NCBI GenBank assembly: GCA_034521515.1
Contig: JAXHMH010000002.1
Location: 344,379 to 408,378, forward strand
Direction: 5' to 3'
From: Candidatus Saccharimonadota bacterium
GTDB taxonomy: Bacteria; Patescibacteriota; Saccharimonadia; Saccharimonadales; JAXHMH01
Length of the DNA: 64,000 nucleotides
Numbering within the stretch: the stretch's first letter is position 1; each line of letters begins with the position of its first letter. Positions 7,770-52,678 of the stretch are shown in pieces. The translations under genes and the position numbers were made by a program. The notes under the pieces are model-generated. The model did no database searches and had not been told where the DNA came from. It saw only the letters and a list, made by a program, of their open reading frames with translations.

Positions 7770-7801
7770 TAATTCATTCTACCATCATTTAGTTACTAAC
7801 A

Positions 7802-7836: not shown

Positions 7837-7898
7837 GGAGGCTTTGTTCTCTCGCGATTTTCCTCTATACTTAAGCTTATAATCTCCTCTTTCTGAGG

Positions 7899-10699: not shown

Positions 10700-10703
10700 C
10701 AAG

Positions 10704-10731: not shown

Positions 10732-10951
10732 CAAAGCAGCAGAAGGTTACGCCAAACAAATCGACCGATCTTTTAGGCGCTTTTTGCTCACTGCCAAAGG
10801 GTCAGCTTCAAAAGTGCAGTCTATGCTTATACTGGCCGATGACATACAATATACATCAGAGGAGCAACTAGGATCACGCTTCACGTTAGCGAAAGAGGCG
10901 GCAAAGATTATAGGCGGACTTAAAAATAAACTCCATTCTCAAAACTCATAA
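10727..10951 (+). pseudogene. Truncated four-helix-bundle protein gene (C-terminal ~70 aa only)
   Basis: AEGYAKQIDRSFRRFLLTAKGSASKVQSMLIL aligns with residues ~50-116 of the 7419..7769 product. About 45 N-terminal residues (helices 1-2) are missing, and only 27 nt separate it from virB4. Confidence 0.7.
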
Positions 10952-10963
10952 CACATATCTATC

Positions 10964-18580: not shown

Positions 18581-18664
18581 CAACCTACTAACTACCAATT
18601 CCTTCACCCCATCTACCATATACCAACTACTAACTACCAACTGCCATCTACCAACTACCAGCCT
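18581..18664. repeat. Heptad tandem tract, 12 units (ccaacta/ccatcta/ctaacta type) abutting the dnaA stop
   Basis: The tract is 84 nt in unbroken 7-nt register. On the minus (dnaA sense) strand the units read tagttgg/tagatgg, giving TAG in all frames. It is the same unit family as 54585-54605. Confidence 0.8.
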
Positions 18665-31205: not shown

Positions 31206-32705
31206 ATGGTACGAAAAAGTACAGTTCGGGAGCACCGCAGCCAACAACGCAGTAATGACCAAAAAGGGCTACGGCATGTCGAGCTTGGCTCGGCAACAGG
31301 TAGCCAGGCGCAAAGTGTCTGGAAACACATACCACTCTGGGGGAGCTACGCGCTGCTGGTGTACATGCCGTTTCATATCTTTTTGAGCCAGTGGTTGAGC
31401 ACATTTACCGGCGGTCTGGAAGCCTGGAAAATTGCCAAAGATGTAATAACGCTTGCCCTGGTAGTGGTTAGTCTGGGCTTAGTTTTATGGACCGGCGCGT
31501 ACAAACAACGAGTATTTATATGGGCTGCCGGGTTGTCGGTGGCGTACGTTGCACTGCATATTATTACCTACGCCATAAACCAGGACACCACACCGGAAGT
31601 TGCGGCGTTGGCCACGGTTTATAACAATCGCCTCCTGTGGTATTTGATAATCGGCCTGAGTGCTTGGTTGCTGACGCCAAAAAGTTTCACTATCAATAAA
31701 ATCACCAAGCTGGTGCTGATCGTCAGCACCATAACCGCCGGGTTAGGAGTGTTGCAGTATTTTGCGCCCGCTAACATCATGACGTATTTTGGCTACAGCT
31801 TGGATCGCGGCGTTTGGCCGGCATTCTTTATTGATAGCAAACCGGACTTGCCGCGGATTATGAGCACCGTGCGCGACCCCAACTCCTACGGGGCGTACTT
31901 AATCCTACCTCTTACTCTCCTCTGGACGCTGCTTTTGCAGAGTTTAAAAGTAAAAAGTAAAAAGTACAAAGCTCAAGTCTCAAAGCTCAAGTCTCCAGTC
32001 TCATCTATTAACTATCATCTATCAACTATGAGCAGCGCCACGCTGCTCCTCAGTGGCCTCTTCATGCTGCACGGTCTCGCGTTGTTTTTGACTTTTTCAC
32101 GGTCGGCTTGGATCGGGGCATTTGTCAGCTTGGTCATCGTCAGTTTAGTGGCAGAACGCCGGTTTATGAAACAGTGGTTTAAGCGGTTGTGGCCGTTTGT
32201 GACAGCGGCGATATTCGTGCTGGCGTTTGGAATACTCATGCTAAGGGATACCTACGTGGTGCAAAACATTATCTTTCATGCCGATGACAGCACAACTGCC
32301 GAAATGGACTCCAACGCACTGCATATTCATGCGCCACTAGAGGGGTTACGGCAGGCCGGCCAAAAACCACAAGGCTACGGTCCGGGCACTGCGGGTATTG
32401 TCTCGATCCAGAATGAGTCCGGCAGCTTTTTGACAGAAAACTACTACATACAGATATTGCACGAGGTCGGCATTGCCGGACTGGCGGTCTTTGGGGCGGC
32501 GCTGTTGTTTGTAGTGCGGCAACTACGGGTTGAGAGCAAACTTGGCGCAGCTTTGTTTGCATCGTTTTGGGGCTACTTCTTGATGAGCATGATTATGCAT
32601 TTATGGACCAATGAAGCAGTTGCTGCGCAGTGGTGGCTGGCGGCTGGCTTGCTGATCGGGGCGCAGATGGCAGCCAATGAGCACAAGCCAAAGCGACAGA
32701 ACTGA
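31206..32705 (+). CDS. O-antigen ligase/polymerase-like (Wzy_C-type) polytopic membrane protein
   Basis: At least 10 hydrophobic helices. LALFLTFSRSAWIGAFVSLVIV is typical of the O-antigen ligase family loop region. GAGGAG SD 7 nt before the ATG. Confidence 0.6.
   Translation: MVRKSTVREHRSQQRSNDQKGLRHVELGSATGSQAQSVWKHIPLWGSYALLVYMPFHIFLSQWLSTFTGGLEAWKIAKDVITLALVVVSLGLVLWTGAYKQRVFIWAAGLSVAYVALHIITYAINQDTTPEVAALATVYNNRLLWYLIIGLSAWLLTPKSFTINKITKLVLIVSTITAGLGVLQYFAPANIMTYFGYSLDRGVWPAFFIDSKPDLPRIMSTVRDPNSYGAYLILPLTLLWTLLLQSLKVKSKKYKAQVSKLKSPVSSINYHLSTMSSATLLLSGLFMLHGLALFLTFSRSAWIGAFVSLVIVSLVAERRFMKQWFKRLWPFVTAAIFVLAFGILMLRDTYVVQNIIFHADDSTTAEMDSNALHIHAPLEGLRQAGQKPQGYGPGTAGIVSIQNESGSFLTENYYIQILHEVGIAGLAVFGAALLFVVRQLRVESKLGAALFASFWGYFLMSMIMHLWTNEAVAAQWWLAAGLLIGAQMAANEHKPKRQN
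31950..32033. repeat. Heptad tract (12 units = 84 nt = 28 codons) embedded in-frame in the ligase-like CDS, inverted relative to the intergenic tracts
   Basis: The units read gtaaaaa gtaaaaa gtacaaa gctcaag tctcaaa gctcaag tctccag tctcatc tattaac tatcatc tatcaac tatgagc. The reverse complement contains gatgata, gttaata, ctggaga and cttgaga, units also found at 55383-55501 and 56054-56186. It encodes VKSKKYKAQVSKLKSPVSSINYHLSTMS. Confidence 0.8.
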
Positions 32706-32774: not shown

Positions 32775-33779
32775 ATGAAAAAACGAGCACTTATTACCGG
32801 TATTACTGGTCAGGACGGCGCACATTTAGCCCAACTGCTGCACGATAAAAACTATGAAGTGTTCGGTGTTATCCGCGGGCAACGCAACCCGCGCCGCGAG
32901 GCTACAGAGCAGCTTTTGCCTTACGTCACCCTAATAGAAGCTGATCTAACCGATTTATCCTCACTAGTCCGCGCCATGGAAACTTCCAAGCCTGATGAGG
33001 TGTATAACTTGGCTGCCATCAGTCATGTCGGTTATTCGTTCAAGGATCCTATTTTAACTGCAGAGGTTACTGGTAAGGGCGTGCTCAACATGCTGGAGGC
33101 AATACGTCTTAGCGGCGGCGAAAAAACCGTTAAGTTTTATCAGGCATCAACCTCAGAAATGTTTGGCGGCCTAGAATACAACCGTCCAGACAAAGGCTAT
33201 AACGAGGATGCTATCTTCCATCCGCGCAGCCCTTACGGCGTGGCTAAGCTATACGGTCACTGGATAGCTCGCAATTACCGCGAAAGTTACGGTATGTTCG
33301 TATCGTGCGGAATCTTATTCAATCATGAGGGCGAACACCGCGGGCTAGAGTTTGTGACCCGCAAAATTACCAACGCCGTGGCACGTATCAAGCTCGGCAA
33401 ACAAGACCATATAGAGCTTGGTGATCTATGGCCTAAGCGTGACTGGGGTTACGCCGGCGACTACACAGAAGGCATGTGGCGTATGTTGCAGCAAGACAAA
33501 CCTGATGATTATGTGCTGGCAACCGGTGAAACGCATTCTATTGAGGAGTTTTTGACCCTAGCGTTTAAAGAAATTGGCATTGATGACTGGAAACCATACG
33601 TCAAACAAAACCCGGCGTTTATGCGCCCGGCAGAGGTTGACGTATTGCTTGGTGATCCGTCCAAGGCAGAAAAGCAGCTTGGCTGGAAGCGCAAAGTCGA
33701 CTTTCCAGGTCTCGTCAAACTGATGGTCAAACACGATCTAGAGTTAGAGAAGCTTGATCAATCTGACAACAAAATCTGA
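32775..33779 (+). CDS. gmd: GDP-mannose 4,6-dehydratase
   Basis: MKKRALITGITGQDGAHLAQLL, SEMFG, YGVAKLY (YxxxK) and LFNHEGEHRG are all Gmd hallmarks. AAGGAGGG SD. Confidence 0.92.
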   Translation: MKKRALITGITGQDGAHLAQLLHDKNYEVFGVIRGQRNPRREATEQLLPYVTLIEADLTDLSSLVRAMETSKPDEVYNLAAISHVGYSFKDPILTAEVTGKGVLNMLEAIRLSGGEKTVKFYQASTSEMFGGLEYNRPDKGYNEDAIFHPRSPYGVAKLYGHWIARNYRESYGMFVSCGILFNHEGEHRGLEFVTRKITNAVARIKLGKQDHIELGDLWPKRDWGYAGDYTEGMWRMLQQDKPDDYVLATGETHSIEEFLTLAFKEIGIDDWKPYVKQNPAFMRPAEVDVLLGDPSKAEKQLGWKRKVDFPGLVKLMVKHDLELEKLDQSDNKI

Positions 33780-34706
33780 TTACTGGTTAACTATGTCTTT
33801 GATGGTTTGTTCAAATGGGATTTCCGGCTCCCAGCCGGTTTCGTCACTTAGGCGTTCAAAACTGCCGTATAAATCGGCCGGATCGTTTGGCCGGATTAGT
33901 GACTGATCAACATCAATTGTAACCTTATCTTTTAGCCCCATCTCGCTCACCAACGCATCTAGCACACTTTGGCCGGTGCGGCTGGTGCCGCTGCAGACGT
34001 TAAATAAGTTGTCTTGCAGGGTTTCGGCTGTGGCCAGGTCGCTGTAGGCGCGCACTACATCGCGCACATCGGTATAGTCACGCTTGGTGGTCAAATTGCC
34101 AACAGTTACTGGCTTACCAGTCTCTTTTGCATCAAGCAGTTTTTGGTATAAGTCTGGCAGCAAGAAACCAGGTGCTTGGCCAGGGCCAACGTGATTAAAC
34201 GGCCGTACGATAATACAGTCCAGCCCCTGTTTTTGGAGTTCTTGGGCGGCCTCTTCCATCATGATCTTGCTGAGTGCGTACGGCGAGCCTTCGGTTATAA
34301 GTTTGGATTCTTCAGTTAGCGGGGTCTGCTGTTTTGGGTCATAAACTGCACCGGTACTAACTGCTATCAGCCGGGCTTTTTCTTTGCTATCGAGCAGCCG
34401 TTCGCCTAAGGTAGTTAGCACCTCTACGTTTACTTTTTTATATAACTCTTCTGCACCAAAAGAGGCGCCAACATTGGCTAGGCCGGCCAAGTTTATAATC
34501 GTATCAACATTTTCTAGAGGCAGGGCGTCCACCTGGATTTTATCGGTCAGATCGCAGCTAAAATAGTCGTCCAGTTGATCGGCAATTTCAGGTGAGGGCA
34601 CGTCTTCTGTACCAAGCCCGAGCACCTCAAGTTCACGCGCTTTTAGCTCGCGCACTAGGTGTTTGCCGACAAAACCATTTACTCCGGTGACAAGTATTTT
34701 AAGCAT
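33780..34706 (-). CDS. NAD-dependent SDR, probable GDP-4-keto-6-deoxy-D-mannose reductase (Rmd-like)
   Basis: MLKILVTGVNGFVGKHL (Rossmann fold, Rmd-like GFVGKHL) and YALSKIMME (YxxxK). It is convergent with and abuts gmd. ATG 34706 is preferred over 34745. Confidence 0.55.
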   Translation of the reverse strand: MLKILVTGVNGFVGKHLVRELKARELEVLGLGTEDVPSPEIADQLDDYFSCDLTDKIQVDALPLENVDTIINLAGLANVGASFGAEELYKKVNVEVLTTLGERLLDSKEKARLIAVSTGAVYDPKQQTPLTEESKLITEGSPYALSKIMMEEAAQELQKQGLDCIIVRPFNHVGPGQAPGFLLPDLYQKLLDAKETGKPVTVGNLTTKRDYTDVRDVVRAYSDLATAETLQDNLFNVCSGTSRTGQSVLDALVSEMGLKDKVTIDVDQSLIRPNDPADLYGSFERLSDETGWEPEIPFEQTIKDIVNQ

Positions 34707-34798
34707 ACATAAGTAGCCTAACACGACAACTGCTCCCTGCCGCAATAAAATCTATCGTCCTTGTGGTACAGAGGTAAAACCTATAAAATAGACGCAAC

Positions 34799-35602
34799 GT
34801 GAAAAGACTTCAACAACGCTATCGATATTCCTTGATTTTGCTCAAGCAGCTGGTAAAAACGGATTTTAAATTGCGTTATCAAGGCTCCTTTTTGGGGTAT
34901 CTTTGGTCACTTCTGCGGCCGCTGGCGTTATTTGTCATTTTGTACATTGTGTTCGCGCGGTTTTTGCGGTTTGGCGAAGCTGTTCCAAACTTCCCGGTTT
35001 ACCTGTTGTTTGGCATTGTGCTGTGGAACTATTTTGTGGAGGTCACCAGCAACAGTGTCAGTGCTATCGTCGGCAAGGGCGACTTGATCCGCAAACTCAA
35101 CTTTCCTAAATACGTAATTATTATGTCCGGCTCGTTATCGGCGCTGATCAACCTAGGCATTAACATGATAGTCTTAGCGGCCTTTATGTGGTTTACCGGA
35201 GTAGATTTAAGGATCGAGGCTTTGCTGTTGCCAATTGTGTTGGCCGAGTTGTTCGTGTTTGCGCTGGCGCTAGCCTTTTTACTCAGCGCGCTGTTCGTGA
35301 AGTTCCGTGACATTACCTACATCTGGGAGGTCGTGTTGCAAGCTGGGTTTTACGCCACCCCGATCATTTATCCGCTAAGCTTAATCCCGGATATTGCCGC
35401 CAAACTGTTGTTGCTTAGCCCGGTGGCACAGATAATCCAAGATGCTCGATACCTGTTAATTACGCCAGAAACAACCACCCTAAGTCAGTTGTACGGTACG
35501 CATCTGGTGCGCCTGATACCATTGTCGGTTATTTTGGTCATATGTATTTTTTCTGTGACGTATTTCCGCAAGCGATCTAAATACTTTGCGGAGGAGGTGT
35601 AG
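34799..35602 (+). CDS. wzm: ABC-2 type polysaccharide export permease (Wzm/TagG-like)
   Basis: 267 aa with six hydrophobic helices. The N-terminal LVKTDFKLRYQGSFLGYLWSLLRP is the ABC-2 polysaccharide-exporter signature. It lies directly upstream of the ATPase. Confidence 0.8.
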   Translation: MKRLQQRYRYSLILLKQLVKTDFKLRYQGSFLGYLWSLLRPLALFVILYIVFARFLRFGEAVPNFPVYLLFGIVLWNYFVEVTSNSVSAIVGKGDLIRKLNFPKYVIIMSGSLSALINLGINMIVLAAFMWFTGVDLRIEALLLPIVLAELFVFALALAFLLSALFVKFRDITYIWEVVLQAGFYATPIIYPLSLIPDIAAKLLLLSPVAQIIQDARYLLITPETTTLSQLYGTHLVRLIPLSVILVICIFSVTYFRKRSKYFAEEV

Positions 35603-35604: not shown

Positions 35605-36810
35605 ATGGCCACCAAGAAAGACGCCGTTATCAAGGTGCAAAATGTCTCTAAGGACTTTCGGTTTGCTAGCAATCGTTCTGGCACACTCAAGAGTCTGTTT
35701 ACCGGATTATTACAGCGCAAAGAGGACGAAGAGGCTAAAATCCAGCACGCCCTAAAAGATATTAGTTTCGAGATCAAAAAAGGCGAGTTTTTTGGCATTG
35801 TCGGGCGTAATGGCAGTGGCAAGAGTACGTTGCTTAAGATGTTGGCGGGTATTTATCAGCCATCAGAGGGCAATATTCAGGTAGAGGGTAAGTTGGTGCC
35901 GTTTATTGAGCTCGGTGTAGGGTTTAATCCAGAACTAACCGGCAAAGAAAACGTCTATCTTAATGGTGCGCTATTGGGCTTTAGCGAAGATGAGGTAGAC
36001 AAATTTTATGATGAAGTAGTGGAGTTTGCCGAGCTAGAACAGTTCATGGACAAAAAGCTCAAAAACTACTCATCCGGCATGCAAGTGCGCCTGGCGTTTT
36101 CTATGGCCATCCGCGCCCAAGCCGACATTCTGCTAATTGACGAAGTATTAGCAGTCGGCGACGCCGATTTCCAGCGTAAGTGCTTTGAGTATTTTAATCA
36201 CCTGAAAAAAGTGAAAAGTACCGTTATATTTGTGAGTCACGATATGGAAGCCATTCGTCAATATTGTGATAGAGCGGTACTAGTAGAAGACAGTGTCTTA
36301 ATAGAAGAAGGTAGCGCGGAAACTGTAGCACAAGCCTACACAAGACAATTCACTGAGACGCAAACTAGCGTACGCGAGGATAATTCTGGTGAAGACAATC
36401 CAAAAAGATGGGGTGAGGGCGGCATTATTACAAAATCCGTCGCAGTGGATATCACTGAACAAAAAATTACCATGACGCAAACTTTACAAGCCAATGAAGA
36501 CATGAAGAGCTACATAGCCGGGATTAGACTGAAAAATACGGCTAACCAGTACATTACTGGCACAAACACAAAGATTGAACATAAAAAAGTTAACCCCCTT
36601 AAGGCTGGCGAAACGGTGGATATAATCTGGGAAATGTCGAACATACTAAGCGACGGTGACTACCTTATTGATCCAGCGGTACTTTATTCAAACGAGATTA
36701 CAGTCGGGGATTGGTGGGACGATGCAGTACAGTTCACAGTTAAGAGAAACAGAAAGATACCCTATATAATAGACCCGGGTTTTAAAGTACATGTAAAGGA
36801 TGTGCAGTAA
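35605..36810 (+). CDS. wzt: Polysaccharide ABC exporter ATP-binding protein (Wzt/TagH-like) with C-terminal extra domain
   Basis: Walker A is GRNGSGKSTLLKML, the signature motif is YSSGMQVRLAF and Walker B is ILLIDEVLAVGD. A ~150-aa C-terminal domain sits in the position of Wzt glycan-terminus-binding domains. Confidence 0.8.
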   Translation: MATKKDAVIKVQNVSKDFRFASNRSGTLKSLFTGLLQRKEDEEAKIQHALKDISFEIKKGEFFGIVGRNGSGKSTLLKMLAGIYQPSEGNIQVEGKLVPFIELGVGFNPELTGKENVYLNGALLGFSEDEVDKFYDEVVEFAELEQFMDKKLKNYSSGMQVRLAFSMAIRAQADILLIDEVLAVGDADFQRKCFEYFNHLKKVKSTVIFVSHDMEAIRQYCDRAVLVEDSVLIEEGSAETVAQAYTRQFTETQTSVREDNSGEDNPKRWGEGGIITKSVAVDITEQKITMTQTLQANEDMKSYIAGIRLKNTANQYITGTNTKIEHKKVNPLKAGETVDIIWEMSNILSDGDYLIDPAVLYSNEITVGDWWDDAVQFTVKRNRKIPYIIDPGFKVHVKDVQ

Positions 36811-36812: not shown

Positions 36813-37706
36813 ATGAAACCAATAATCTACTATGGTCAAAACCGTGAAGACCTTATTTTGTCAGCATTTTTTCCTGATGAGAAAGATGGGTTTTATGTTG
36901 ATGTCGGAGCTCATCATCCAGTAAAAGATTCGGTTACTAAATTGTTTTACGACAAGGGTTGGACGGGTATTAATATTGAACCCCAGCCTAAACAACATAA
37001 ACTTTTGAAACAAAAAAGACCTAGAGACATCAATTTACAGATTGGTATATCTGATAAGCCAGGCAAATTACAGCTGCGAAGCTATGCCATGGATGGGTTC
37101 TCTACCTTTTCGGATAGTATTAAAAAAGAGCACAAGCAAGGCAAAATAGAGGGCACAAAAAAATATCGTGACTATGAAGTAGAAGTTGATACGCTAGGCA
37201 ATGTATTTAAAAAGCACGGTGTCAAAAAGATTTCATTTTTAAAGGTGGACGTAGAAGGTCTTGAGTATGAGGTACTTGCTGGTAATAACTGGAATAAATT
37301 TAGGCCAGAAGTACTCTGCATTGAAGCCAATCATATAGTGAAAGACTGGCGGAGTTTACTAAAGCAAAACAGGTACTCTTATGTATTATTTGATGGATTA
37401 AATGAATATTTTGTATCACACGAAGCAGAATTCCGTATAGAACTATTCAGAAAAACCTATCCAGATATTCTTGTATCATCTTCAGTTCTGTCATATGGGT
37501 GGTCGCAACAAATCGATAAACTTTCGGCGCAATTACAGAAAGTGCAGGCAACTCTAGATAATCAAATGCACGCAAACAAACAACTACAAGAAACAATCAA
37601 TCAACAAGAAAAAGAGTTGCGCAGCGTAATCGCCTTGTCGAAACGGCTGGCGAAAAGAACAGTAAAAAAATTACTGCCAATAAAAAATAATTTTAACAAA
37701 GACTAG
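36813..37706 (+). CDS. FkbM-family methyltransferase with C-terminal coiled-coil
   Basis: GFYVDVGAHHPVKDS and ISFLKVDVEGLEYEVL are FkbM-type motifs. The C-terminal QLQKVQATLDNQMHANKQLQETINQQEKEL looks like a coiled coil. Confidence 0.65.
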   Translation: MKPIIYYGQNREDLILSAFFPDEKDGFYVDVGAHHPVKDSVTKLFYDKGWTGINIEPQPKQHKLLKQKRPRDINLQIGISDKPGKLQLRSYAMDGFSTFSDSIKKEHKQGKIEGTKKYRDYEVEVDTLGNVFKKHGVKKISFLKVDVEGLEYEVLAGNNWNKFRPEVLCIEANHIVKDWRSLLKQNRYSYVLFDGLNEYFVSHEAEFRIELFRKTYPDILVSSSVLSYGWSQQIDKLSAQLQKVQATLDNQMHANKQLQETINQQEKELRSVIALSKRLAKRTVKKLLPIKNNFNKD

Positions 37707-39031
37707 TTTTTTATAGCACGGATAATACTATCAGCCGTCTTATTCCAGCCAAATTTCTTTGCTTGTTTCTTTCCAGTCAAAGAGAACTTACTTGAGTCTG
37801 TGCTGTTAGATACCAAGTCTCTAACTGTGCGAGTAATACCCATAAAATCGTCTGCATAGATTGCCGCATCTTCAGCTACCTCTAAAATAGAAGTGTTGCG
37901 ATAAGTAATGACTGGCGTACCGTGGCGCATGGCTTCAAGTACCGGCAAACCAAACCCCTCATACACGCTAGGATATACAAATGCGACTGCATGTTTATAA
38001 AGCCATTCACGTTGGTAATCTTCTACGAACCCAAGGAAGTAAACATCGTCTAAATATGAGGTGTTTCTGAAGTAATCCTGCAAAGCTGGAACCGGTATGT
38101 CAAAAGGGCCTTTGGAAGTGTCGCCGGCAAGTACAAGTTTTATATCATGGCCTTGTGCACGCAAATTATTAAAAGCAGCTACAAGGTCAACAAGTTTTCT
38201 TCTGGGGTCAGCTCCGCCCAAAAACAACAAGAACTTCTTATCATTCAGGTCTAATTTACGGGGTATGGTTCCCCAGCTTGTATAGGTGTATCTGTGTAAC
38301 TGTGGGTCTTTATCTGTCTTCTTGGTTTTGCTGCCGTCTACCCCTAGCAAACAAACTTGTATTTTTTTGGCCGGCACCGATAGGCGGGTCACAAAATCTT
38401 TTTTAGTATGCTTTGAAATAGCTAATAAATAGTCAGCTCGTTTGCAATTAAACTTTAGGCGGCTTTTGTATTGCCGGCGGTGCAGGGCATGATTAAGCGC
38501 GCTTCTTCTGGTGCATCCTTTATTACGTGCAGTAGAGTAAGACAGTAAGTAATCTGCCTCCATGACGTAGGGGATCATGTCATATAAAACCAGCGCGACT
38601 TTACCTTTGGCGTGGCGTGGCAAATGTTGCTCTTGGTTAAACTGGATAAATTTATCAATATCACGCAATGAACCTAGACGCGTGTCTCCGAGGTAATAAT
38701 CTTTGTAAATTCTAAACTGATGTAGGGCAACTTTAAAGGGTGCTTTGATTATAGCCGGTACAAACCTACCCAATTGTTTGGCGATGTGTTTTAGCTTGTT
38801 TCTTCTTGGATTAGCTAGTGGGTTAGGTATCGAAACAATGCTATGGTTTACGCCTTTTAATTCTAGTAAATTGAGCGCTTGATCTTTGTCTTGTTCATAT
38901 AAGTACAGTACAAAATGGTGCTTAGTTTTTGCTTCTTTTGGCAGGTGGTTTATAAAGTTGATAAGCGTATAGCCAATGCCGCGCATCCGGTGCGGGCCTT
39001 GCAGCACAGTGGCGTCGATACCTATCTTCAT
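37703..39031 (-). CDS. Glycosyltransferase, GT4 family
   Basis: YPSVYEGFGLPVLEAMRHGTPVITYRNTSILEV. Confidence 0.8.
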   Translation of the reverse strand: MKIGIDATVLQGPHRMRGIGYTLINFINHLPKEAKTKHHFVLYLYEQDKDQALNLLELKGVNHSIVSIPNPLANPRRNKLKHIAKQLGRFVPAIIKAPFKVALHQFRIYKDYYLGDTRLGSLRDIDKFIQFNQEQHLPRHAKGKVALVLYDMIPYVMEADYLLSYSTARNKGCTRRSALNHALHRRQYKSRLKFNCKRADYLLAISKHTKKDFVTRLSVPAKKIQVCLLGVDGSKTKKTDKDPQLHRYTYTSWGTIPRKLDLNDKKFLLFLGGADPRRKLVDLVAAFNNLRAQGHDIKLVLAGDTSKGPFDIPVPALQDYFRNTSYLDDVYFLGFVEDYQREWLYKHAVAFVYPSVYEGFGLPVLEAMRHGTPVITYRNTSILEVAEDAAIYADDFMGITRTVRDLVSNSTDSSKFSLTGKKQAKKFGWNKTADSIIRAIKN

Positions 39032-40209
39032 TTGGTTTTCTCCATAATCAAATCCCAGTATTGTTGGGCACTCTTTTCCCAGGCGAAGTTGCTGGCTTGT
39101 TCCGGGCCGGCGGTTATTGTTTTAGCTGAGACTGCTTCAATGTTGTCCAGGTGGTGTTTTATGTGTTTTACAAAGCCGTCTAAATCAGTGCAATTTAACA
39201 AAACACCAGCATCACCTACAACCTCAGGCAAGGATGAATTATCCGCAGAGATAACCGGTACTCCGCATGCCAGTGCTTCAAGCGGTGGCATACCAAAGCC
39301 CTCGTAGTGGCTCGGATATACCAGCATTTTAGCTCCAGAAATAATCGCCGGCTTGTCTTTGTCCGATACATATTCAGATGGTCGTACAATATCGTAGCCA
39401 TCTTTAACTAGCTCAACAATTTTGGCAAACAATGCGTCGGTCTTCCAGCCACTCACACCAACAAGCAACAAACTGATATCTTTACGGTATTTTTCTGGAA
39501 GTTTGCAGTAGGCATCAACCAAAAGATCTAAATTTTTGCGCGGCTCTAGGTTTGATAGGGCTAGAATATAGTTTTTCTTTATACCGTATTTTTGCTTTAC
39601 CTTGTTTATCTCTTGCTCCGAGCGGCGGTAAAAGTAGCGTTGGTCGGCCGCAGGAGTAGCCACGATAACATCATTTTTAGGTAGGTTATAAAAACTAGCA
39701 ATTTCTTGTTTGCCGTTTTCTGATATGGCAAAAACTTTCTCTACCTGCTTTATAGACTTCTTAACACCTTTGGAGAGGAAGTTAGCATTGCGCTCATCGG
39801 AGTATTGGCGGTAATGCTCATAAGACAGGTCATATATAACTACCGAAGATTTACTAAAAACTAATGGCATCGTCACAAAACGCGTGAATATGTAGTAGCC
39901 ACGGCCGCACCAAAGGTCTAAAGGCGGCATAAGGTTGTGATGCCATAGCCGAGCCATGGTTCTGAATGTTATAGGCAACCGTTTGGCACGTATGTGTTTA
40001 AACTTATATGACTGGAATTTGTCTAGGGTATTGTAAGGGATAATAACCCGAACGTCTGGCACAGGGTTACCAGCAAGCTTCTCTCGCTCTAGTATGGCGT
40101 CTATACCGCGCAACGTGCCGAGAATATATTGACCAATACCGCTAAAATGCCCCTCAACGAGGCCAAGCCCTTCAAAATATATTCTTTTTTTGATCATGTA
40201 CCATAACAT
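39028..40209 (-). CDS. Glycosyltransferase, GT4 family
   Basis: YPSHYEGFGMPPLEALACGVPVISADNSSLPEV; 4-nt overlap with the downstream GT4 gene. Confidence 0.8.
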   Translation of the reverse strand: MLWYMIKKRIYFEGLGLVEGHFSGIGQYILGTLRGIDAILEREKLAGNPVPDVRVIIPYNTLDKFQSYKFKHIRAKRLPITFRTMARLWHHNLMPPLDLWCGRGYYIFTRFVTMPLVFSKSSVVIYDLSYEHYRQYSDERNANFLSKGVKKSIKQVEKVFAISENGKQEIASFYNLPKNDVIVATPAADQRYFYRRSEQEINKVKQKYGIKKNYILALSNLEPRKNLDLLVDAYCKLPEKYRKDISLLLVGVSGWKTDALFAKIVELVKDGYDIVRPSEYVSDKDKPAIISGAKMLVYPSHYEGFGMPPLEALACGVPVISADNSSLPEVVGDAGVLLNCTDLDGFVKHIKHHLDNIEAVSAKTITAGPEQASNFAWEKSAQQYWDLIMEKTK

Positions 40210-40375: not shown

Positions 40376-42466
40376 TTAATATGTACCGGTGTGCCAGGTT
40401 GGTCGTCCGGTACTTTTCCGGTACAAAACTAAATTGTTATCTTCCTGTAAGACCAACCTCGAAGACCCCATGCCGTTTGTATTTGTGTACCAAACAGGGT
40501 CTCCATCAGTGTTGTAGAGCACCAAATTACCGTCGCTCTGCATGGCGAGATATTTAATGTTTTCTCCAACAGTGTACGTTGCCCATAGCGCCTTGCCTTG
40601 GTCATATAACACCAAGTTCCCGTCACTTTGTATTACTAGTTTTCGTTTACGGTCAGCGGTTTCTAATTTTTGGCCGGGGAAAAGTTTATAAGCAGGCAGG
40701 GTAGGGGTAACATGTTTAAGCATGTGCGGCCTTTGTACAGTATTACTTGCCCATAAGGGCACATTATCTTCGCTATACACAACCATATTCCCATCATGCT
40801 GTACGGCGAACCAAGCTCCTGCATTGCCATATGTTCCAGTGTGCCAAACAGGGTTTCCGCTGGTGTTGTACAACACTAAATTGCCATCCCCCTGCATAAC
40901 CAACCTTTTTAGTTGGTTATGGGGGCTCTTTTGCCAGATTTCTTCAAAACTACTCATTAGTCTTAAGCTCTTCTTCTCAAGACGTAGTACGTTATATCTA
41001 TCAGAAGAAAGTAGATGTTCGCCAAAGTTAATTTGTTCGCCAGGCTCCAGAATGTTTTTTGTATTAGCCGGATTAAGCTCACTAGTAACATGGACTGTAA
41101 AAGTAAGTCCATTTGCTTTCATCCACTTCTTGCCCTCAACAACCATGTTGAACGATTCTTTGTATGTCCCGAGTTCTTGGGGTGCAGTTATAGAAAATTC
41201 GTAAGTACCAAAAGTGCCTGGTACGACTTCGGTTTCGGCAAGCTTAGATGCGCGCGTAGAGCTAAGCCAGCTTTCATCTGCGAAAATGCTGCTTCTATCT
41301 TGTTTGTTCCAGGTTCCTAGATGAGTCTTTGATTGTGTCCAGCTCTTATTGCCTATGTTGTGAACTTTGACTCGTATATAGGCGGTTTCACCAGGAAGGA
41401 GAGAGATATCTTTTTTTGTAAATTTTGTTGTTCGCTGAGAATTTATGTATACCTCACTTGTCTCGAGTGACCATCCATAATCAATGTTGGAGTGCGTAGA
41501 CCCGAACCAGTCATTATACATGCGCCAGAAGTTCCGGTTACCGTAAGCGCTACAACCATTTCCGGTACCATAAAGATTATCCAGTGCGGCTTTGTTGGGT
41601 TGATAAGGCGTGTAGTTATAAAGCCCGGCGGTTGCTTGTGAGCGCAGAAGTAAATCGGTGCCACCACAACCAGTATTGGGATTGTATTGGACGTAGTTAA
41701 CAAATCCGACGCGATAATTCGGCCCGTCAACCTTATCATAGTGTTTGTAAACTCGGCCTGCATAGTATACCTGGTTGAAAAATCCTTCATACTGGTCATA
41801 GCAACCGTTTTGATTGCTATCAACCTTGCTGGACAGTTTGGTATCTGGGCAACCATAGCCGGTTGCCTTTGTATACTGGATGCCCCATGGCCATGTGTCT
41901 TTAATCAAGCTTTGCTCCTTTTGTAGCAGTACAAGCAACACTCTGGTGCTAACTCCGCAAGCTTTGGAGACATCATGGATTATTTGAGCAGCAGGCTGAT
42001 CGCTTTTGGAGCTGATCGCTTTACACAATCCTGACTCGGCAGGCTTTGACGGTGTGTTTATCCTGTAATCTTTGAGGCAAGTGTACGGTGCACGAGACCC
42101 GTAGGTCGGGCCAAGGTCATCATAAACCCGCTGTCCGTAGATAGCACGAGATGTCGTAACCCACTGGTCTCCATTCCATTCACCATCACGGTTGTTTACT
42201 TCTCCTGTGTCTGGGTTGTAATAATAAGATCGAGACTTCTCACCATCTGTATCACAAACTGGTACTTTACTATTTAAAAACGTCTGAATTTGTGAAACAG
42301 TCAAGTCGCCGGCTCTGAAAAACACCGTGTCGTCCATGATTCTTTCAGGATTGAATTGGCTGCCGGATAAGGCGCTTGTTGGTGTAGTTTGCAGGGTGGT
42401 AAATATGCCAGACAAGACGAGGACTGTCAAAAGTGTTATCGATAAGTATTTGTGTAAGGTTTTCAT
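40376..42466 (-). CDS. Secreted multidomain protein with two C-terminal bulb-type (GNA-like) mannose-binding lectin domains
   Basis: Signal peptide present. Five QxDxNxVxY motifs occur: QGDGNLVLY, QHDGNMVVY, QSDGNLVLY, QSDGNLVLY and QEDNNLVLY. A central Ig-like/NBR1-FW-like segment is GETAYIRVKVHNIGNKSW...GTYEFSITAP. The N-terminal ~330 aa contain RVLLVLLQKEQSLI; their function was not assigned. Confidence 0.7.
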   Translation of the reverse strand: MKTLHKYLSITLLTVLVLSGIFTTLQTTPTSALSGSQFNPERIMDDTVFFRAGDLTVSQIQTFLNSKVPVCDTDGEKSRSYYYNPDTGEVNNRDGEWNGDQWVTTSRAIYGQRVYDDLGPTYGSRAPYTCLKDYRINTPSKPAESGLCKAISSKSDQPAAQIIHDVSKACGVSTRVLLVLLQKEQSLIKDTWPWGIQYTKATGYGCPDTKLSSKVDSNQNGCYDQYEGFFNQVYYAGRVYKHYDKVDGPNYRVGFVNYVQYNPNTGCGGTDLLLRSQATAGLYNYTPYQPNKAALDNLYGTGNGCSAYGNRNFWRMYNDWFGSTHSNIDYGWSLETSEVYINSQRTTKFTKKDISLLPGETAYIRVKVHNIGNKSWTQSKTHLGTWNKQDRSSIFADESWLSSTRASKLAETEVVPGTFGTYEFSITAPQELGTYKESFNMVVEGKKWMKANGLTFTVHVTSELNPANTKNILEPGEQINFGEHLLSSDRYNVLRLEKKSLRLMSSFEEIWQKSPHNQLKRLVMQGDGNLVLYNTSGNPVWHTGTYGNAGAWFAVQHDGNMVVYSEDNVPLWASNTVQRPHMLKHVTPTLPAYKLFPGQKLETADRKRKLVIQSDGNLVLYDQGKALWATYTVGENIKYLAMQSDGNLVLYNTDGDPVWYTNTNGMGSSRLVLQEDNNLVLYRKSTGRPTWHTGTY

Positions 42467-42471
42467 AATTT

Positions 42472-42987
42472 TTATTTTACCGTAACCTCTTTAGTGTCTG
42501 ACAAACCTGAAGCTACTTCTGACGAGTATTCTACAATTGCTGTCCATTTACCGGGTGTTAGTTTTGACAGAGGTACTTTTATAAAACCACAGGAGACATC
42601 GGAAACGTTGCGTGTTGCTGTACTCGTTGCTTTAACTTCTTTGGATCCGCTTTTCAGAGTGAGTTCGCAGGTGCCACCGTCTTCAAATATGCTCGGAACA
42701 CGTGCCGCAAGCTCGAAGTACTCACCAGATTGACCCCAAGAAGTAATTTGTGGGGTTACCTGGCTACTACTATTTGAAGTAGTGTTGTTTTCTTCACTGG
42801 GCTGATTTGCTAGTTCTTCCTTGTGCTTTTCAGCTTCCTGTAAATCAGTTTCGTCAATGCCTGGTTGTTCGACGCTATTATTGGATGAAGTAGCGTATAT
42901 ATAAGCGGCAGAAAGAATAACAAGCAACAGGGCTAGTAAAATTAAGCCGATGCGTTTATTAGTGCGCGATTTTGTAGAATATTTCAT
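42472..42987 (-). CDS. Membrane-anchored hypothetical protein
   Basis: N-terminal TM (IGLILLALLLVILSAAYIY), a low-complexity linker and a ~90-aa beta-rich C-terminal domain. It is co-oriented with the lectin gene and 5 nt from it. Confidence 0.45.
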   Translation of the reverse strand: MKYSTKSRTNKRIGLILLALLLVILSAAYIYATSSNNSVEQPGIDETDLQEAEKHKEELANQPSEENNTTSNSSSQVTPQITSWGQSGEYFELAARVPSIFEDGGTCELTLKSGSKEVKATSTATRNVSDVSCGFIKVPLSKLTPGKWTAIVEYSSEVASGLSDTKEVTVK

Positions 42988-43413: not shown

Positions 43414-44898
43414 ATGAGGAAAACGAAAAAAACACTTGATGTTATCACAAACAAAGCAATAGACATCCTTGGCAAAAAAGAGTTATTTTATTTTATTTTA
43501 TTTATTGCGGTATTCCAGGGCGTATGGTACGCACTTTCAATCATTCCTGGGATGTTTGACGAAGTAAGACATATCGACGCTATAATGTTCCAAAAAGAGC
43601 TAATAAATCCCTTTATAGATAGTCAGCCAGAGCATTGGGATATTATTGGTAATGGTATTAGAGATCCAAGTTATTTATTCTACTACCTTATGAGTTGGCC
43701 GGTCCGGTTAATTGCAGCAATTACGAACAACCAAGCTGCCCAGGTAATTGCATTGCGCTTGATTATGGTCGGGTTTTTTACATGGGCGTTATTTTTGTGG
43801 AGGAAAGCGCTTCTCAGGCTATCTATAAGTCCTATATCTATAAATGTCGGGCTACTATTTGTCGTTTTAACACCTGCAACAGCACCATTAGCGGGGACCA
43901 TTAATTACGACAACCTTATATTTTTCGCTACAGCCCTGTGCCTACTTTTCTCAATAAAGGTTATTAACACAAAGAGGATAGAGATTAACTCGCTTATTGG
44001 CCTACTCGCTACCGGTATGTTTTTTAGTGTTATAAAATATACATTTTTAGCAATATTTATCCCTATTTTGGCATATACTCTGTGGCGTCTATTTTCGAGC
44101 TACGGTAAAAAATTACCCTCATTGTTGAGAAGTTCGTTTAAGCAACTATCAAGCGCCGGGAAGATAGTTGGTGTATTATTGCTCGTAATCTCTTTTGGTC
44201 TTTTTTTGGAGAGGCCGATATACAATACCGTTAGATATGGCAATCCAAAGCCCGCCTGCAAACAGATAATTGATGAACGTAGATGTTCGGCTAATGATTT
44301 GATCAAGAGCAGAATCACACTACAAAAAAATCGTCCGGCCGATTTCAAACCCAAAAGTCCATTTGAATATGGGTTGAAAAACTGGGCTCCAATAATGATT
44401 ACTGGGAGCAGCCGAGTGATAAATGCCCAAACTCCAACGATCGTCATGCATTTTTTGTATTATTCTTTTGCCTTTACCGGAATAGGTATGGTTATTTATT
44501 ATCTAAGAGACCACCTGCAGTTTAAAGCGAATATACTATTACTAATTGTTGTACTTACTTATTTAGCAGTACTCTTTCTTACCAATTATTCATCTTACAA
44601 TAAAAATGCAGGAGTTGTGGCGGTCAATGCGAGATATTTTTTGCCAGTATTGCCAATTCTACTCGTGTTTGTGGCTGAGTCGTTTTTAAGGGCACTCAGA
44701 AAATACAGAGCAGTATCAACAGTCCTATTGACTGTTATTATTTTGAGCTTTTCGCAAGGTGGAGGGTTGATAAGTACGTTAATTGTATTTAACCAGCAGC
44801 ATTATTGGAACAATAGCCTAGTAATACAGGTGAATAATAAAACAAAAAAAGCTTTGCACAATATTGTATTTGAAAGAACTCCATTTCGTAGACTGTAG
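43414..44898 (+). CDS. Polytopic membrane protein, GT-C-fold glycosyltransferase candidate
   Basis: More than 10 hydrophobic helices. An acidic motif in the first extracytoplasmic loop (GMFDEVRHID) recalls the DE/DxD loop of PMT/ArnT/DUF2142-type enzymes. It sits in the glycan locus. Confidence 0.4.
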   Translation: MRKTKKTLDVITNKAIDILGKKELFYFILFIAVFQGVWYALSIIPGMFDEVRHIDAIMFQKELINPFIDSQPEHWDIIGNGIRDPSYLFYYLMSWPVRLIAAITNNQAAQVIALRLIMVGFFTWALFLWRKALLRLSISPISINVGLLFVVLTPATAPLAGTINYDNLIFFATALCLLFSIKVINTKRIEINSLIGLLATGMFFSVIKYTFLAIFIPILAYTLWRLFSSYGKKLPSLLRSSFKQLSSAGKIVGVLLLVISFGLFLERPIYNTVRYGNPKPACKQIIDERRCSANDLIKSRITLQKNRPADFKPKSPFEYGLKNWAPIMITGSSRVINAQTPTIVMHFLYYSFAFTGIGMVIYYLRDHLQFKANILLLIVVLTYLAVLFLTNYSSYNKNAGVVAVNARYFLPVLPILLVFVAESFLRALRKYRAVSTVLLTVIILSFSQGGGLISTLIVFNQQHYWNNSLVIQVNNKTKKALHNIVFERTPFRRL

Positions 44899-47423: not shown

Positions 47424-48662
47424 CTAGTTGTTTTTTAGAATATTGTTTATTTTGTTTACATTTTCCAAAGAGCTTTTCTTTATCTTTTCATTTTTCGATT
47501 TTAGTGTTTTTGTCATCGAGTCGTGGTTTTCTAAGATGTCATTCAACTTTTCATTAACTGTGAATCTATCAATATATTTTGCATCGATTATATATTCCTG
47601 CATACCCAAAGTACTCATTATACCCAAAGTCTTGTGGCTATAGCTCAACGCGATGGTTGGAACGTTGGTTGATAATGCTGCTATGTTTGAATGCATACGA
47701 GAACCTAAAAAAACCTTACAGAAGGATATTATGCCCTTTACTTCCTGTGGCCCATAGTCGTCATTGAGTGCAAACGCATTTTTTCTATTTTTCATGTTAG
47801 CAAGAATGCTATTCGCCACGATTCGGTCATCCTTTTCGTCTGTAGGCCCCGTCACGTGACTAACAAATAAAACGTTAACTCCAAAATTATCTATTACATC
47901 GTCAAGAATATTTGCAAAACTAATATCAAAGTATTCTTTATTTACTTTATTAAATCTTTTTTGAATTATACCGCTAACAGTAATCCCTAACAGAGGTTTA
48001 GATAAATCGACTTTTTCTTTCTGAAGTACTTTATTTATTTTTATTTTTGGTATTGGCTCTAGTAGAAAGGCCATGTCTGACTCTAGATACAATTTGTTTT
48101 TCGGTAGTCCCAAGCTTTCTAGATATTCATAAGTAACTCTTTCACGTGCCGTAATACCAGCACATCCTCGCAAAGTTAACTTTACCAACCATCTAGTTAA
48201 CTTAAACGGCCCCATAGATTGGGCGCAGATATAGACCGGTGTTCCGAGTAGATGAGCAGACATAATTGGTAAAAGGTGAGAGTAGGTTACATGAGGCCCG
48301 TAATCTTCCGTAATGGTATCTCCGCTAAGATCAATCAGTATATCGGCTTCTTTTATAGCTTTTAATTCTTTGGTCAGAAGTAAGAAATTCAGATTTATTC
48401 CGACTTTTGAGAGCGCCCAATAAATCGACAATGGCAACAATAAAAAACTAGAGCTTATTATTTTTCGACGACGAGATCTGACTATATTGTAGTTTCTATA
48501 TAAATTCTTGTCATATTCTGGGAAAGGAGCGCTTATAGTAATCTCACAATTTGGCCATCGCTTTTTTAATGCTCCAGCCGTGGCGAGTTGCATCGCAGCA
48601 TCACCTTTATTGTATGAGGAATAGGTGCCTGTCAATAAAAAACTAAACTTCTTATTTTCCAT
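47424..48662 (-). CDS. Polysaccharide pyruvyl transferase family protein
   Basis: LLTGTYSSYNKGDAAMQLATAGALKKRWP and LGSRMHSNIAALSTNVPTIALSY are WcaK/CsaB-type PS_pyruv_trans motifs. Confidence 0.7.
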   Translation of the reverse strand: MENKKFSFLLTGTYSSYNKGDAAMQLATAGALKKRWPNCEITISAPFPEYDKNLYRNYNIVRSRRRKIISSSFLLLPLSIYWALSKVGINLNFLLLTKELKAIKEADILIDLSGDTITEDYGPHVTYSHLLPIMSAHLLGTPVYICAQSMGPFKLTRWLVKLTLRGCAGITARERVTYEYLESLGLPKNKLYLESDMAFLLEPIPKIKINKVLQKEKVDLSKPLLGITVSGIIQKRFNKVNKEYFDISFANILDDVIDNFGVNVLFVSHVTGPTDEKDDRIVANSILANMKNRKNAFALNDDYGPQEVKGIISFCKVFLGSRMHSNIAALSTNVPTIALSYSHKTLGIMSTLGMQEYIIDAKYIDRFTVNEKLNDILENHDSMTKTLKSKNEKIKKSSLENVNKINNILKNN

Positions 48663-52591: not shown

Positions 52592-52678
52592 CGTTTTTCT
52601 CCGTTTTGCTTCCAGTGTATTGTACCAGAGAAGTATTACCCGTAATATAGGTATGTTGATCAAAAAGAAAGGGAGTTG

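Follow-up and report, generated by a model that had tools for sequence, protein, structure and literature searches.

We examined a 64,000-nucleotide stretch of DNA from a Candidatus Saccharimonadota bacterium (contig JAXHMH010000002.1, positions 344,379 to 408,378; hereafter the window), in which a gene for a 696-amino-acid (aa) lectin-bearing protein lies inside a locus for a 6-deoxyhexose surface glycan. The protein carries a predicted Sec signal peptide, an orphan N-terminal domain, an immunoglobulin (Ig)-like module, and a C-terminal tandem of beta-prism II lectin domains, and its gene directly follows one for a 171-aa membrane-anchored protein. The orphan domain, rather than the lectins, is what defines a large family shared by Saccharibacteria and Actinobacteria, and both the two-gene cassette and its glycan neighborhood are conserved. 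Our best reading, which we hold tentatively, is that of an autolysin-like enzyme tethered to the producer's own rhamnan and working with the anchored partner protein.

Domain organization and lectin fold

The sole hydrophobic segment of the 696-aa protein is N-terminal and is followed by TSA/LSG (the slash marking the predicted cleavage site), which fits a Sec signal peptide. A-x-A/LSGS is also the family consensus immediately ahead of the conserved N-terminal domain. The protein is therefore predicted to be secreted, as proposed in an earlier note that was made from the letters of this DNA. That note also described five QxDxNxVxY motifs in two beta-prism II domains, preceded by an Ig-like module and by an N-terminal domain of no assigned function containing LLQKEQSLI, and this outline was borne out in each of its parts.

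All five quoted motifs are present and exact (Table 1), against a chance expectation of ~0.0005 from composition. Domain 2 has three of three subsites intact, and domain 1 has two of three plus one degenerate site; homologues have six motifs, with LQxDGNLVLY where the window protein has the decayed LEKKSLRLM. The Pfam model B_lectin (PF01453) matches in two stretches (E = 4.8e-14, 53.2 bits against a cutoff of 32.4). Sequence matches of the lectin region in the PDB are the Mycobacterium smegmatis lectin 4oit, pyocin L1, snowdrop agglutinin (GNA), and putidacin L1, and the best of these for domain 2 is 4oit (1.5e-20, ~43% identity). The earlier note had proposed structure prediction as a check on the fold, and the fold obtained is beta-prism II. 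An AlphaFold2 model of aa 336 to 696, built from 49 homologues, is all-beta with a predicted local distance difference test (pLDDT) score of 96.2, and its top Foldseek match is pyocin L1 with D-rhamnose (4led, 5.6e-12), with LlpA (3m7h) and the two-domain SCAfet lectin also found. Single lectin domains match monocot lectins (1xd5, 1xd6, and 4tkc) with TM scores of 0.85 to 0.88 and root-mean-square deviations of 1.3 to 1.8 Å, and the Trp triads are kept in both domains (W511/541/572 and W628/659/691).

The module at aa 336 to 460 is probably an NBR1-type Ig domain. The Pfam model N_BRCA1_IG (PF16158) is sub-threshold in the window protein (21.4 bits against a cutoff of 28, E = 3.8e-4) and passes the cutoff in homologues (28.9 bits in P0121 and 30.3 bits in P0052), the best E among sampled family members being 3e-17. 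The best relatives of the 696-aa protein are 55 to 62% identical to it, and an exact-sequence look-up of the protein found no record.

Lectin domain 2 is also matched by PDB 9oee_A, a 2025 structure of Streptomyces UmbA4 (a "secreted esterase," also of 696 aa) with teichuronic acid. This structure is a precedent for B-lectins that read Gram-positive wall polymers in antagonism.

A large orphan family with exchangeable C-terminal modules

Scans of aa 34 to 326 against Pfam, NCBIfam, and PHROG gave no match, and Pfam was blank even at E ≤ 10, its SLT, lysozyme-like, and glucosaminidase models included. Across 67 diverse family members, Pfam at E ≤ 10 returned nothing consistent, with one SLT_4 match at E = 0.12. 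Profile searches of the PDB with two alignments of the N-terminal domain gave just a spurious 27-residue match to PP2A. The family is nevertheless large, with 2,165 homologous proteins found in a word-indexed search and 4,467 cluster representatives at 50% identity in an exhaustive profile search, 2,326 of them below 1e-30. Its named members are all called "hypothetical protein," with no informative name found; a large search with a divergent N-terminal subfamily likewise gave named matches that were all "hypothetical," none of them with a catalytic Pfam domain.

At least 596 loci among GTDB species representatives encode the domain, and the best 80 of these were surveyed. Most of the 80 come from metagenome-assembled genomes of Candidatus Saccharibacteria, with a few from other bacteria of the candidate phyla radiation (CPR) and others from cultured Actinobacteria. 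The actinobacterial homologues, at 40 to 45% identity, belong mainly to Microbacteriaceae (Agromyces, Leifsonia, Plantibacter, Cryobacterium, Agrococcus, Agreia, Humidisolicoccus, and Aurantimicrobium), plus Phycicoccus and Demequina. The divergent subfamily reaches Berkelbacteria and other Patescibacteria. Neither the 50,697 phage records nor the 72,556 plasmid records searched by tblastn with the N-terminal domain gave a match.

Throughout the family, the N-terminal domain is the constant module and always stands directly after the signal peptide, and the C-terminal modules vary. DUF5648 is the commonest of these, and NBR1-Ig, LGFP, FG-GAP, Fn3, Tectonin, SlpA, FIMAH, Big_5, and dockerin modules also occur; CHAP is found occasionally, and B-lectins in a minority. 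This arrangement matches the layout of secreted wall (murein) hydrolases, in which a constant catalytic domain is joined to exchangeable binding domains. Tandem B-lectins homologous to those of the window are fused elsewhere to CHAP, NlpC/P60, M23, VanY, and Rv2525c-like hydrolase domains. The earlier description of the product as a lectin protein is thus right about the tandem but gives that part too much weight, as it is the N-terminal domain that is conserved and the lectins that are exchanged.

Two further variants are worth recording. The proteins P0241 to P0243 (824 to 1,116 aa) contain three or four tandem copies of the orphan domain, which is unusual for a catalytic domain and unexplained. 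In Leifsonia poae (locus L047, 3908-6181) and a Plantibacter sp. (locus L057, 3890-6166), the homologues are ~757 aa long, and their C-terminal ~450 aa are made of repeated segments of the type "ATVYLV.G.K..I" without a Pfam match, probably a second orphan wall-binding repeat. Both genes adjoin Wzm, sugar-nucleotide genes, and a gene for a 691-aa multi-transmembrane protein.

Signals of an enzyme class

Across 67 aligned sequences, drawn from the two phyla and also from the divergent subfamily, the polar residues that stay invariant are Q61, E184, D208, Q232, T279, Y283, Y285, T286, and N312 (ORF numbering, for open reading frame). The AlphaFold2 model of the domain is alpha+beta, with a pLDDT of 92.9 and a predicted TM score of 0.89, and E184 closes predicted helix 141-152 (domain numbering). 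The eight cysteines of the domain probably form four disulfides.

Murein glycosidases of the lysozyme superfamily, among them lytic transglycosylases, GH73 and GH23 enzymes, and tail lysins, dominate the sub-threshold Foldseek list against the PDB, with 20 of its top 50 entries. They include the phage P68 lysin, the Andhra tail tip, a GH23 chitinase, phiKZ gp144, and Slt35, and also goose lysozyme, MltF, AtlE, and a Clostridium perfringens autolysin. The sub-threshold matches in BFVD are of the same kind, namely murein transglycosylases, endo-beta-N-acetylglucosaminidases, LT_GEWL proteins, and tail lysins.

We also used hhalign to compare a profile built from 430 family sequences with Escherichia coli enzymes. 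Against the E. coli SLT alignment it gave P = 2.6e-4 with a probability of 42% over 26 columns, in which the family stretch is IIHDVSKACGVSTRVLLVLLQKEQSL and E184 falls on Glu217 of MltC and on the catalytic Glu of MltE; a reversed SLT control gave P = 0.45. When 58 E. coli ORFs were used as single templates, MltC came first (P = 4e-4) and MltE second (P = 0.002), with the next at P = 0.045. The hhalign probability for placing E184 on the catalytic Glu of MltC or MltE is 35 to 42%, from a short 26-column match. We regard this signal as specific, though short. A GH23-like glycosidase is the best available hypothesis for the enzyme class, and one toward which we lean. Glu184, at an SLT-like helix end, would most likely be the catalytic acid, and Asp208 is a possible second carboxylate.

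A small anchored partner protein

The stop codon of the 171-aa gene lies 5 nucleotides before the ATG of the 696-aa gene, and an extended -10 element (TGcTATAAT) is found upstream; a consensus scan for promoters and terminators gave counts no higher than in shuffled sequence. Co-transcription of the two genes, which the earlier note had suggested checking, is probable given the short gap and the conserved pairing, and the two genes would then form a small operon.

Using the globular domain alone as a query over the 80 loci, we found a homologue of the partner in 61, in every case immediately upstream and on the same strand. These comprise 44 of the 47 non-actinobacterial loci and 17 of the 33 actinobacterial ones. 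The neighbor in Leifsonia poae, a lipoprotein-like protein of 167 aa, aligns with the 171-aa protein at a pairwise E of 4e-8, with both cysteines aligned.

The divergent N-terminal subfamily (P0121/P0126/P0141 type) also has an anchored protein of 175 to 190 aa directly upstream, and the globular domains of these proteins have no detectable homology to the window's 171-aa protein. They were considered as homologues and rejected, since a full-length hidden Markov model matched them and the globular domain alone did not; the full-length similarity arose because the anchor and linker matched. The small proteins of loci L091 to L093 have a C-x8-C pattern, and that of L003 is Gmad2-like (PF10648; 24.3 bits against a cutoff of 25.7), a model for which the window's 171-aa protein had no Pfam match. 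Locus L021, which combines a window-type N-terminal domain with lectins, has a window-type small protein. In these few cases, then, partner type tracks the N-terminal subfamily and not the C-terminal module, which suggests a cognate interaction with the enzyme-like domain. From this small number of cases we infer that the 171-aa protein and the enzyme-like domain may be a cognate pair.

The glycan locus and its synteny

Genes for two GT4 glycosyltransferases, an FkbM methyltransferase, Wzt, Wzm, an RMD-type reductase, and GMD follow downstream of the cassette in this order (Table 1), and its placement in a glycan locus by the earlier note holds, with the glycan being of the 6-deoxyhexose type. 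The best PDB relative of the short-chain dehydrogenase/reductase is 2pk3 (RMD, GDP-6-deoxy-D-lyxo-4-hexulose reductase; 5.6e-41, full length), and the second is 6x3b (GDP-6-deoxy-D-mannose reductase; 2.6e-27). GMD and an RMD-type reductase together would yield GDP-D-rhamnose. From its gene content, the locus most likely produces GDP-D-rhamnose and exports, through Wzm/Wzt, a D-rhamnose-containing polymer with a methyl cap. The common polysaccharide antigen (CPA) cluster of Pseudomonas aeruginosa follows the same gene logic (PMC3560663). GDP-L-fucose synthase was rejected as an identity for the reductase (44.9 bits with the Fcl model against a cutoff of 500, with the RMD 2pk3 the best match).

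The order small gene, lectin enzyme, GT4, GT4, (FkbM), Wzt, Wzm, RMD, GMD is kept in L002, L003, L092, and L094, where phmmer matches are 1e-182 or better for GMD and 1e-74 or better for RMD. L021 shows the same order as far as its flank extends, which is to the GT4 pair. The divergent lectin-type loci L091 and L093 are Wzm/Wzt loci with a WsaF-like rhamnosyltransferase and methyltransferases, with RmlA-D-like genes in L091. Counting the window and these seven loci, all eight lectin-type loci lie within 6-deoxyhexose-type glycan loci, and Wzm/Wzt is visible in seven. Family-wide, Wzm/Wzt is found within 4 kb in 20 of 82 loci, including 11 of the 20 with an actinobacterial-type C terminus. This frequency is far above that for a random gene in a 1- to 4-Mb genome, which we estimate ourselves at 1 to 2%.

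Several other features of these loci deserve mention. Directly upstream of GMD, a 499-aa multi-pass membrane protein with a Wzy_C/O-antigen-ligase-like domain is encoded at 31206-32705 (+). Together with Wzm/Wzt (Wzt_C), FkbM, and GMD/RMD, it resembles ATP-binding cassette (ABC)-dependent methyl-capped pathways that end in a ligase or O-oligosaccharyltransferase, and peptidoglycan may not be the attachment point of the rhamnan, which could instead be linked to a surface protein or a lipid. On the other side, divergent from the cassette, a 494-aa multi-transmembrane protein without a Pfam or NCBIfam match is encoded at 43414-44898 (+), and relatives have a 674- to 710-aa protein without a Pfam match in the same position (3171-5303 (-) in L002 and L003, ~6100-8300 (-) in L092 and L094). 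One possibility is a membrane glycosyltransferase of GT-C-like type, another a conserved locus protein of some other kind. L091 (382-2686 and 13543-16875) and L093 (13551-19109) have RmlA/C/D-like genes for dTDP-L-rhamnose, a WsaF_C rhamnosyltransferase, GtrA, and Wzm/Wzt, and their lectin tandems may have come to be matched to L-rhamnose glycans instead. In L094, a ParE/YafQ-type toxin-antitoxin pair separates the RMD-like gene from GMD (17366-17884).

The probable ligand

D-rhamnose binds the QxDxNxVxY sites of pyocin L1 and putidacin L1 about ten times better than D-mannose does, L-rhamnose is not bound, and the D-rhamnan CPA is the physiological ligand (PMC3916391). By analogy, D-rhamnose is a likelier ligand than mannose for the window protein, because the adjacent locus most likely makes GDP-D-rhamnose and exports its glycan via Wzm/Wzt. 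The label "mannose-binding" given by the earlier note is thus probably too narrow as to the sugar. Given lectins that are structurally closest to pyocin L1 and putidacin L1 and a gene that sits beside D-rhamnose synthesis, tethering to the producer's own D-rhamnan is the economical reading. The probable L-rhamnose context of L091 and L093 indicates that lectin specificity may differ among lineages.

Comparison with known systems

Pyocin L1 and putidacin L1, of the LlpA group, share with the window protein the tandem beta-prism II fold, the QxDxNxVxY sites, and the Trp triads, and are its best fold matches (4led and 3m7h). Their D-rhamnan ligand is made by GMD, RMD, GT4, and Wzm-Wzt genes, the same set that flanks the window gene. 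However, LlpAs are stand-alone proteins of ~250 to 280 aa with no catalytic domain and no partner gene, and they act via BamA of Gram-negative targets (PMC6240691), whereas in the window protein the tandem forms the C-terminal third of a modular, Sec-secreted protein of 696 aa. The number of intact sites also differs, at five of six in the window protein and two or three in LlpAs.

The proposed logic of the window protein is closer to that of autolysins held by their own polysaccharide. AtlA of Streptococcus mutans binds the polyrhamnose backbone of the serotype c carbohydrate (SCC; bioRxiv 10.1101/2020.06.26.173716), and EpaU of Enterococcus faecalis is encoded inside the cluster for the enterococcal polysaccharide antigen (EPA) and binds EPA (PMC13343894). 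Both are secreted peptidoglycan hydrolases with a wall-binding domain that recognizes the cell's own rhamnan-type polysaccharide. Like EpaU, the window gene and its counterparts in seven further lectin-type loci lie inside a glycan biosynthesis and export cluster. The binding modules of EpaU and AtlA, in contrast, are not B-lectins, their catalytic domains are known where catalysis by the window protein is putative, their polymer contains L-rhamnose, and no conserved small anchored partner is described for them.

Fusions of B-lectins to wall hydrolases are found in monoderm bacteria, as in albusin B of Ruminococcus albus and in database proteins with CHAP, NlpC-P60, M23, or VanY domains. Albusin B, however, is a bacteriocin in which a single lectin domain precedes a peptidase M15 domain, whereas the window protein has its putative catalytic domain, of an orphan family, at the N terminus and its gene is syntenic with the glycan locus of the producer. 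The 696-aa protein had no Pfam or NCBIfam match to peptidase M15/VanY. The MSL lectin of M. smegmatis (4oit), the closest solved sequence relative of lectin domain 2, is an actinobacterial B-lectin joined to a peptidoglycan-related module. It differs in having a single lectin domain in a domain-swapped dimer and a LysM binding domain instead of an enzyme-like one, and we know of no glycan-locus context for it.

As for the orphan domain, GH23 lytic transglycosylases and goose-type lysozymes are the superfamily of its weak fold matches, and the helix-loop-helix "...GV(D/N)P.LL.AI...E(S)" of SLT enzymes such as MltC and MltE, which terminates at the catalytic Glu, aligns with the family's "...CGINPxVLLVLLQKEQS." The domain is nonetheless about twice as large, has four probable disulfides, an extra N-terminal subdomain, and no Pfam SLT match, and carries invariant motifs of its own (GCPD, GFFNQ, LYNYTPY, and YGNRNF).

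Taken together, the lectin fold, lectin-hydrolase fusions, and polysaccharide-tethered autolysins are already known. What is new is this combination, the conserved two-gene cassette, its association with Wzm/Wzt in two phyla, and the size of the orphan family.

Proposed function and alternative explanations

In our tentative model, the two products of the small operon would be an Ig-like protein anchored in the membrane and a modular wall enzyme secreted by the Sec route. The N-terminal domain would cut the glycan strands of peptidoglycan as a GH23/lytic-transglycosylase-like glycosidase, with the NBR1-type Ig module as a spacer, and the tandem lectins, through their five QxDxNxVxY sites, would hold the enzyme non-covalently on a D-rhamnose-containing surface glycan. 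This glycan would be made from GDP-D-rhamnose by the adjacent GMD, RMD, GT4, and FkbM proteins and exported by Wzm/Wzt. The enzyme would work on the producer's envelope, in remodelling, in growth or division, or in making room for glycan attachment, and the anchored protein may be the cognate partner of the N-terminal domain, as a regulator, an inhibitor, or a docking site at the membrane surface. Of the three functional options raised by the earlier note, a role in the cell's own envelope fits best, with the gene a syntenic part of a glycan locus in every lectin-type relative that was examined.

It is also important to set out what speaks against this model. The N-terminal domain has no significant sequence or fold match to any enzyme family by Pfam, PDB profile, or Foldseek searches; Foldseek against the PDB and BFVD gave nothing significant (best E of 0.4 to 1, TM scores of 0.2 to 0.35). 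The SLT-type signal is limited to 26 columns, Slt70, MltD, and MltF fell outside the top 15 as single hhalign templates, and hhalign gave no match to FlgJ (GH73). Ligand specificity is argued by analogy, and L091 and L093 lie beside genes of dTDP-L-rhamnose and WsaF type, L-rhamnose being a sugar to which pyocin L1 fails to bind. Among the Saccharibacteria members that lack lectins, most have no Wzm/Wzt within 4 kb. Finally, an immunity protein would just as typically be small, anchored, and encoded upstream.

This last point bears on an antagonistic or host-directed lysin, a protein acting in the manner of albusin B or of the lectin-guided Umb toxins. Its lectins would be directed at wall polymers that contain rhamnose, either those of the actinobacterial host or those of competing bacteria, the N-terminal domain would breach the wall for feeding, attachment, or killing, and the anchored protein would be the immunity protein or inhibitor. 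Precedents exist in albusin B, a bacteriocin made of a B-lectin and an M15 peptidase (PMC6240691), and in the Streptomyces UmbA4 B-lectin solved with teichuronic acid (9oee). Microbacteriaceae make rhamnose-rich wall polymers, and free rhamnose blocks the binding of TM7x to its host (PMC11623550). The conserved small upstream gene resembles an effector-immunity pair, and the enzyme family is common to Saccharibacteria and the host phylum. However, in all eight lectin-type loci the gene is fixed in the producer's own rhamnan locus, where the glycan of the producer itself would be a competitor for lectin binding. The window has one copy of the cassette, which is widespread among Actinobacteria that live freely, beside Wzm/Wzt loci of their own, and had no match in the phage and plasmid collections, and the C-terminal partners of the domain are binding modules and not polymorphic toxin domains. 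On balance, a host-directed or antagonistic lysin is plausible but less likely than the self-directed enzyme. The LlpA-type bacteriocin that the earlier note had offered, killing relatives without a toxin domain, is far less probable still, to the point that we set it aside. Its appeal lies in the tandem of MMBL (monocot mannose-binding lectin) domains, in pyocin L1 and LlpA as best structural matches, and in an E of 1e-39 with the NCBIfam model LLB_putidacin (NF033557), but the corresponding score of 136.6 bits is far under the cutoff of 275. The selectivity and killing of LlpAs need the outer-membrane protein BamA (PMC6240691). The window protein also departs from the stand-alone LlpA architecture, with 470 extra N-terminal residues that include the conserved enzyme-like domain, and with a partner gene that LlpAs lack. 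Saccharibacteria and Actinobacteria are monoderm and are not known to have such an outer membrane.

Two other possibilities keep the protein on the producer's surface and change what the N-terminal domain does there. It is possible that the domain acts on the surface glycan or its attachment, either trimming or releasing its chains as an endo-rhamnanase or lyase, or completing the Wzm/Wzt pathway as an extracytoplasmic transferase, with the lectins holding the substrate. The enrichment of the whole family beside Wzm/Wzt glycopolymer loci in two phyla is in keeping with this, an invariant Glu/Asp pair with many Tyr, Asn, and Gln residues would suit any glycoside-active cleft, and no significant match forces a peptidoglycan substrate. 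Yet the sole specific remote signals are to murein glycosidases, and co-fusion with CHAP is typical of peptidoglycan hydrolases. The domain also remains 40 to 60% identical while the neighboring glycan genes differ (GMD/RMD, Rml/WsaF, or none nearby), so that an invariant substrate such as peptidoglycan fits better than strain-variable glycans. Glycan processing thus seems improbable to us, and we rate no higher a non-enzymatic lectin or adhesin, in which the N-terminal domain would be structural or binding and the protein would cross-link or organize the glycan layer or mediate cell-cell adhesion. Five intact sugar sites do provide multivalency, the N-terminal domain lacks an enzyme family match, and a scaffold on the surface could be built from the Ig spacer and the anchored partner. 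Against this, the buried-type polar set (E184, D208, and Q, Y, and N residues) is invariant across two phyla, which is more typical of an active site; the conserved constant is the N-terminal domain and not the lectins; and some members have three or four tandem copies or a CHAP domain.

Feature coordinates and the wider window

Table 1. Features of the cassette and the adjoining glycan genes (positions in the 64-kb window)
Feature	Position	Strand	Basis
GMD (GDP-mannose 4,6-dehydratase)	32775-33779	+	Pfam/NCBIfam
RMD-type reductase (short-chain dehydrogenase/reductase)	33780-34745	-	PDB relatives
Wzm	34799-35602	+	Pfam/NCBIfam
Wzt with Wzt_C (glycan-cap-binding domain)	35605-36810	+	Pfam/NCBIfam
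FkbM methyltransferase	36813-37706	+	Pfam/NCBIfam
GT4 glycosyltransferase	37703-39031	-	Pfam/NCBIfam
GT4 glycosyltransferase	39028-40209	-	Pfam/NCBIfam
696-aa lectin-protein ORF	40376..42466	-	ORF list
Predicted Sec signal peptide, aa 1-32, cleavage TSA/LSG	42371..42466	-	cleavage site inferred
Orphan N-terminal domain, aa 34-326, 8 Cys	41489..42367	-	homologue family, AlphaFold2 model
Invariant Glu184 in LLQKEQSL (within LLQKEQSLI, aa 180-188)	41915-41917	-	alignment
Invariant Asp208 in GCPD	41843-41845	-	alignment
NBR1-like Ig beta-sandwich spacer, aa 336-460	41087..41461	-	Pfam sub-threshold, AlphaFold2 model
Beta-prism II (B-lectin) domain 1, aa 471-590	40697..41056	-	Pfam, PDB matches, model
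Domain 1 degenerate site LEKKSLRLM, aa 496-504	40955-40981	-	
Domain 1 intact motif QGDGNLVLY, aa 525	40868-40894	-	
Domain 1 intact motif QHDGNMVVY, aa 556	40775-40801	-	
Beta-prism II (B-lectin) domain 2, aa 591-696	40379..40696	-	Pfam, PDB matches, model
Domain 2 intact motif QSDGNLVLY, aa 613	40604-40630	-	
Domain 2 intact motif QSDGNLVLY, aa 643	40514-40540	-	
Domain 2 intact motif QEDNNLVLY, aa 674	40421-40447	-	
171-aa partner ORF	42472..42987	-	ORF list
Partner membrane anchor, aa 9-31	42895-42963	-	single hydrophobic segment
Partner low-complexity linker, aa 32-84 (~50 aa)		-	
Partner globular domain, ~87 aa, conserved C107 and C133	42475-42735	-	

Elsewhere in the window, a polysaccharide pyruvyl transferase (47424-48662, -), an ATP-sulfurylase/APS-kinase fusion for the synthesis of 3'-phosphoadenosine 5'-phosphosulfate (PAPS; 52676-54406, +), and a UDP-glucose dehydrogenase (58714-60069, -) are encoded nearby, and further glycans of the region may be pyruvylated or sulfated or contain uronic acids. 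The cluster at 2358-13789 (+) looks like a type-IV-secretion-like system with its own wall peptidase: a 924-aa protein without a Pfam match (2358-5132, +) is followed by a TraG/VirB4-like P-loop ATPase (8783-10699, +) and then by a protein of 941 aa whose C-terminal domain is a VanY D-Ala-D-Ala peptidase (10964-13789, +). A DnaA gene at 18663-20030 (-) places the window near the chromosomal replication origin. An 891-aa protein (23614-26289, -) has a GDSL lipase/acylhydrolase domain inside a much larger unannotated protein. Scans of the 64-kb window for tRNA genes and Rfam families found none.

Implications

Saccharibacteria and other CPR bacteria are still poorly characterized, and the locus bears on how they construct, reshape, and employ the envelope in their episymbiotic life. 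It joins a D-rhamnose pathway, a lectin tandem whose closest solved relatives bind D-rhamnan, and an orphan family of more than 4,000 clusters, probably a novel wall-glycosidase branch that has its own partner protein. Were the protein host-directed after all, it would be a candidate effector of the epibiotic lifestyle, a lectin-guided lysin.

A broader proposal can be built on the self-directed enzyme that we favor, although we regard it as doubtful in its full form. The cassette may be an unrecognized, widely conserved extracytoplasmic component of monoderm Wzm/Wzt wall-glycopolymer systems, common to Saccharibacteria and other CPR bacteria and to the actinobacterial host phylum, possibly by horizontal transfer. 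The orphan domain would then represent a novel family of glycoside-active enzymes with a fold elaboration peculiar to it, its lectin-type modules would be matched to the glycan of each lineage, and its activity would be gated by the anchored partner. The same cassette is present in cultured, genetically tractable Microbacteriaceae (Leifsonia, Plantibacter, and Agromyces), and the function of a CPR domain could therefore be determined in a model organism.

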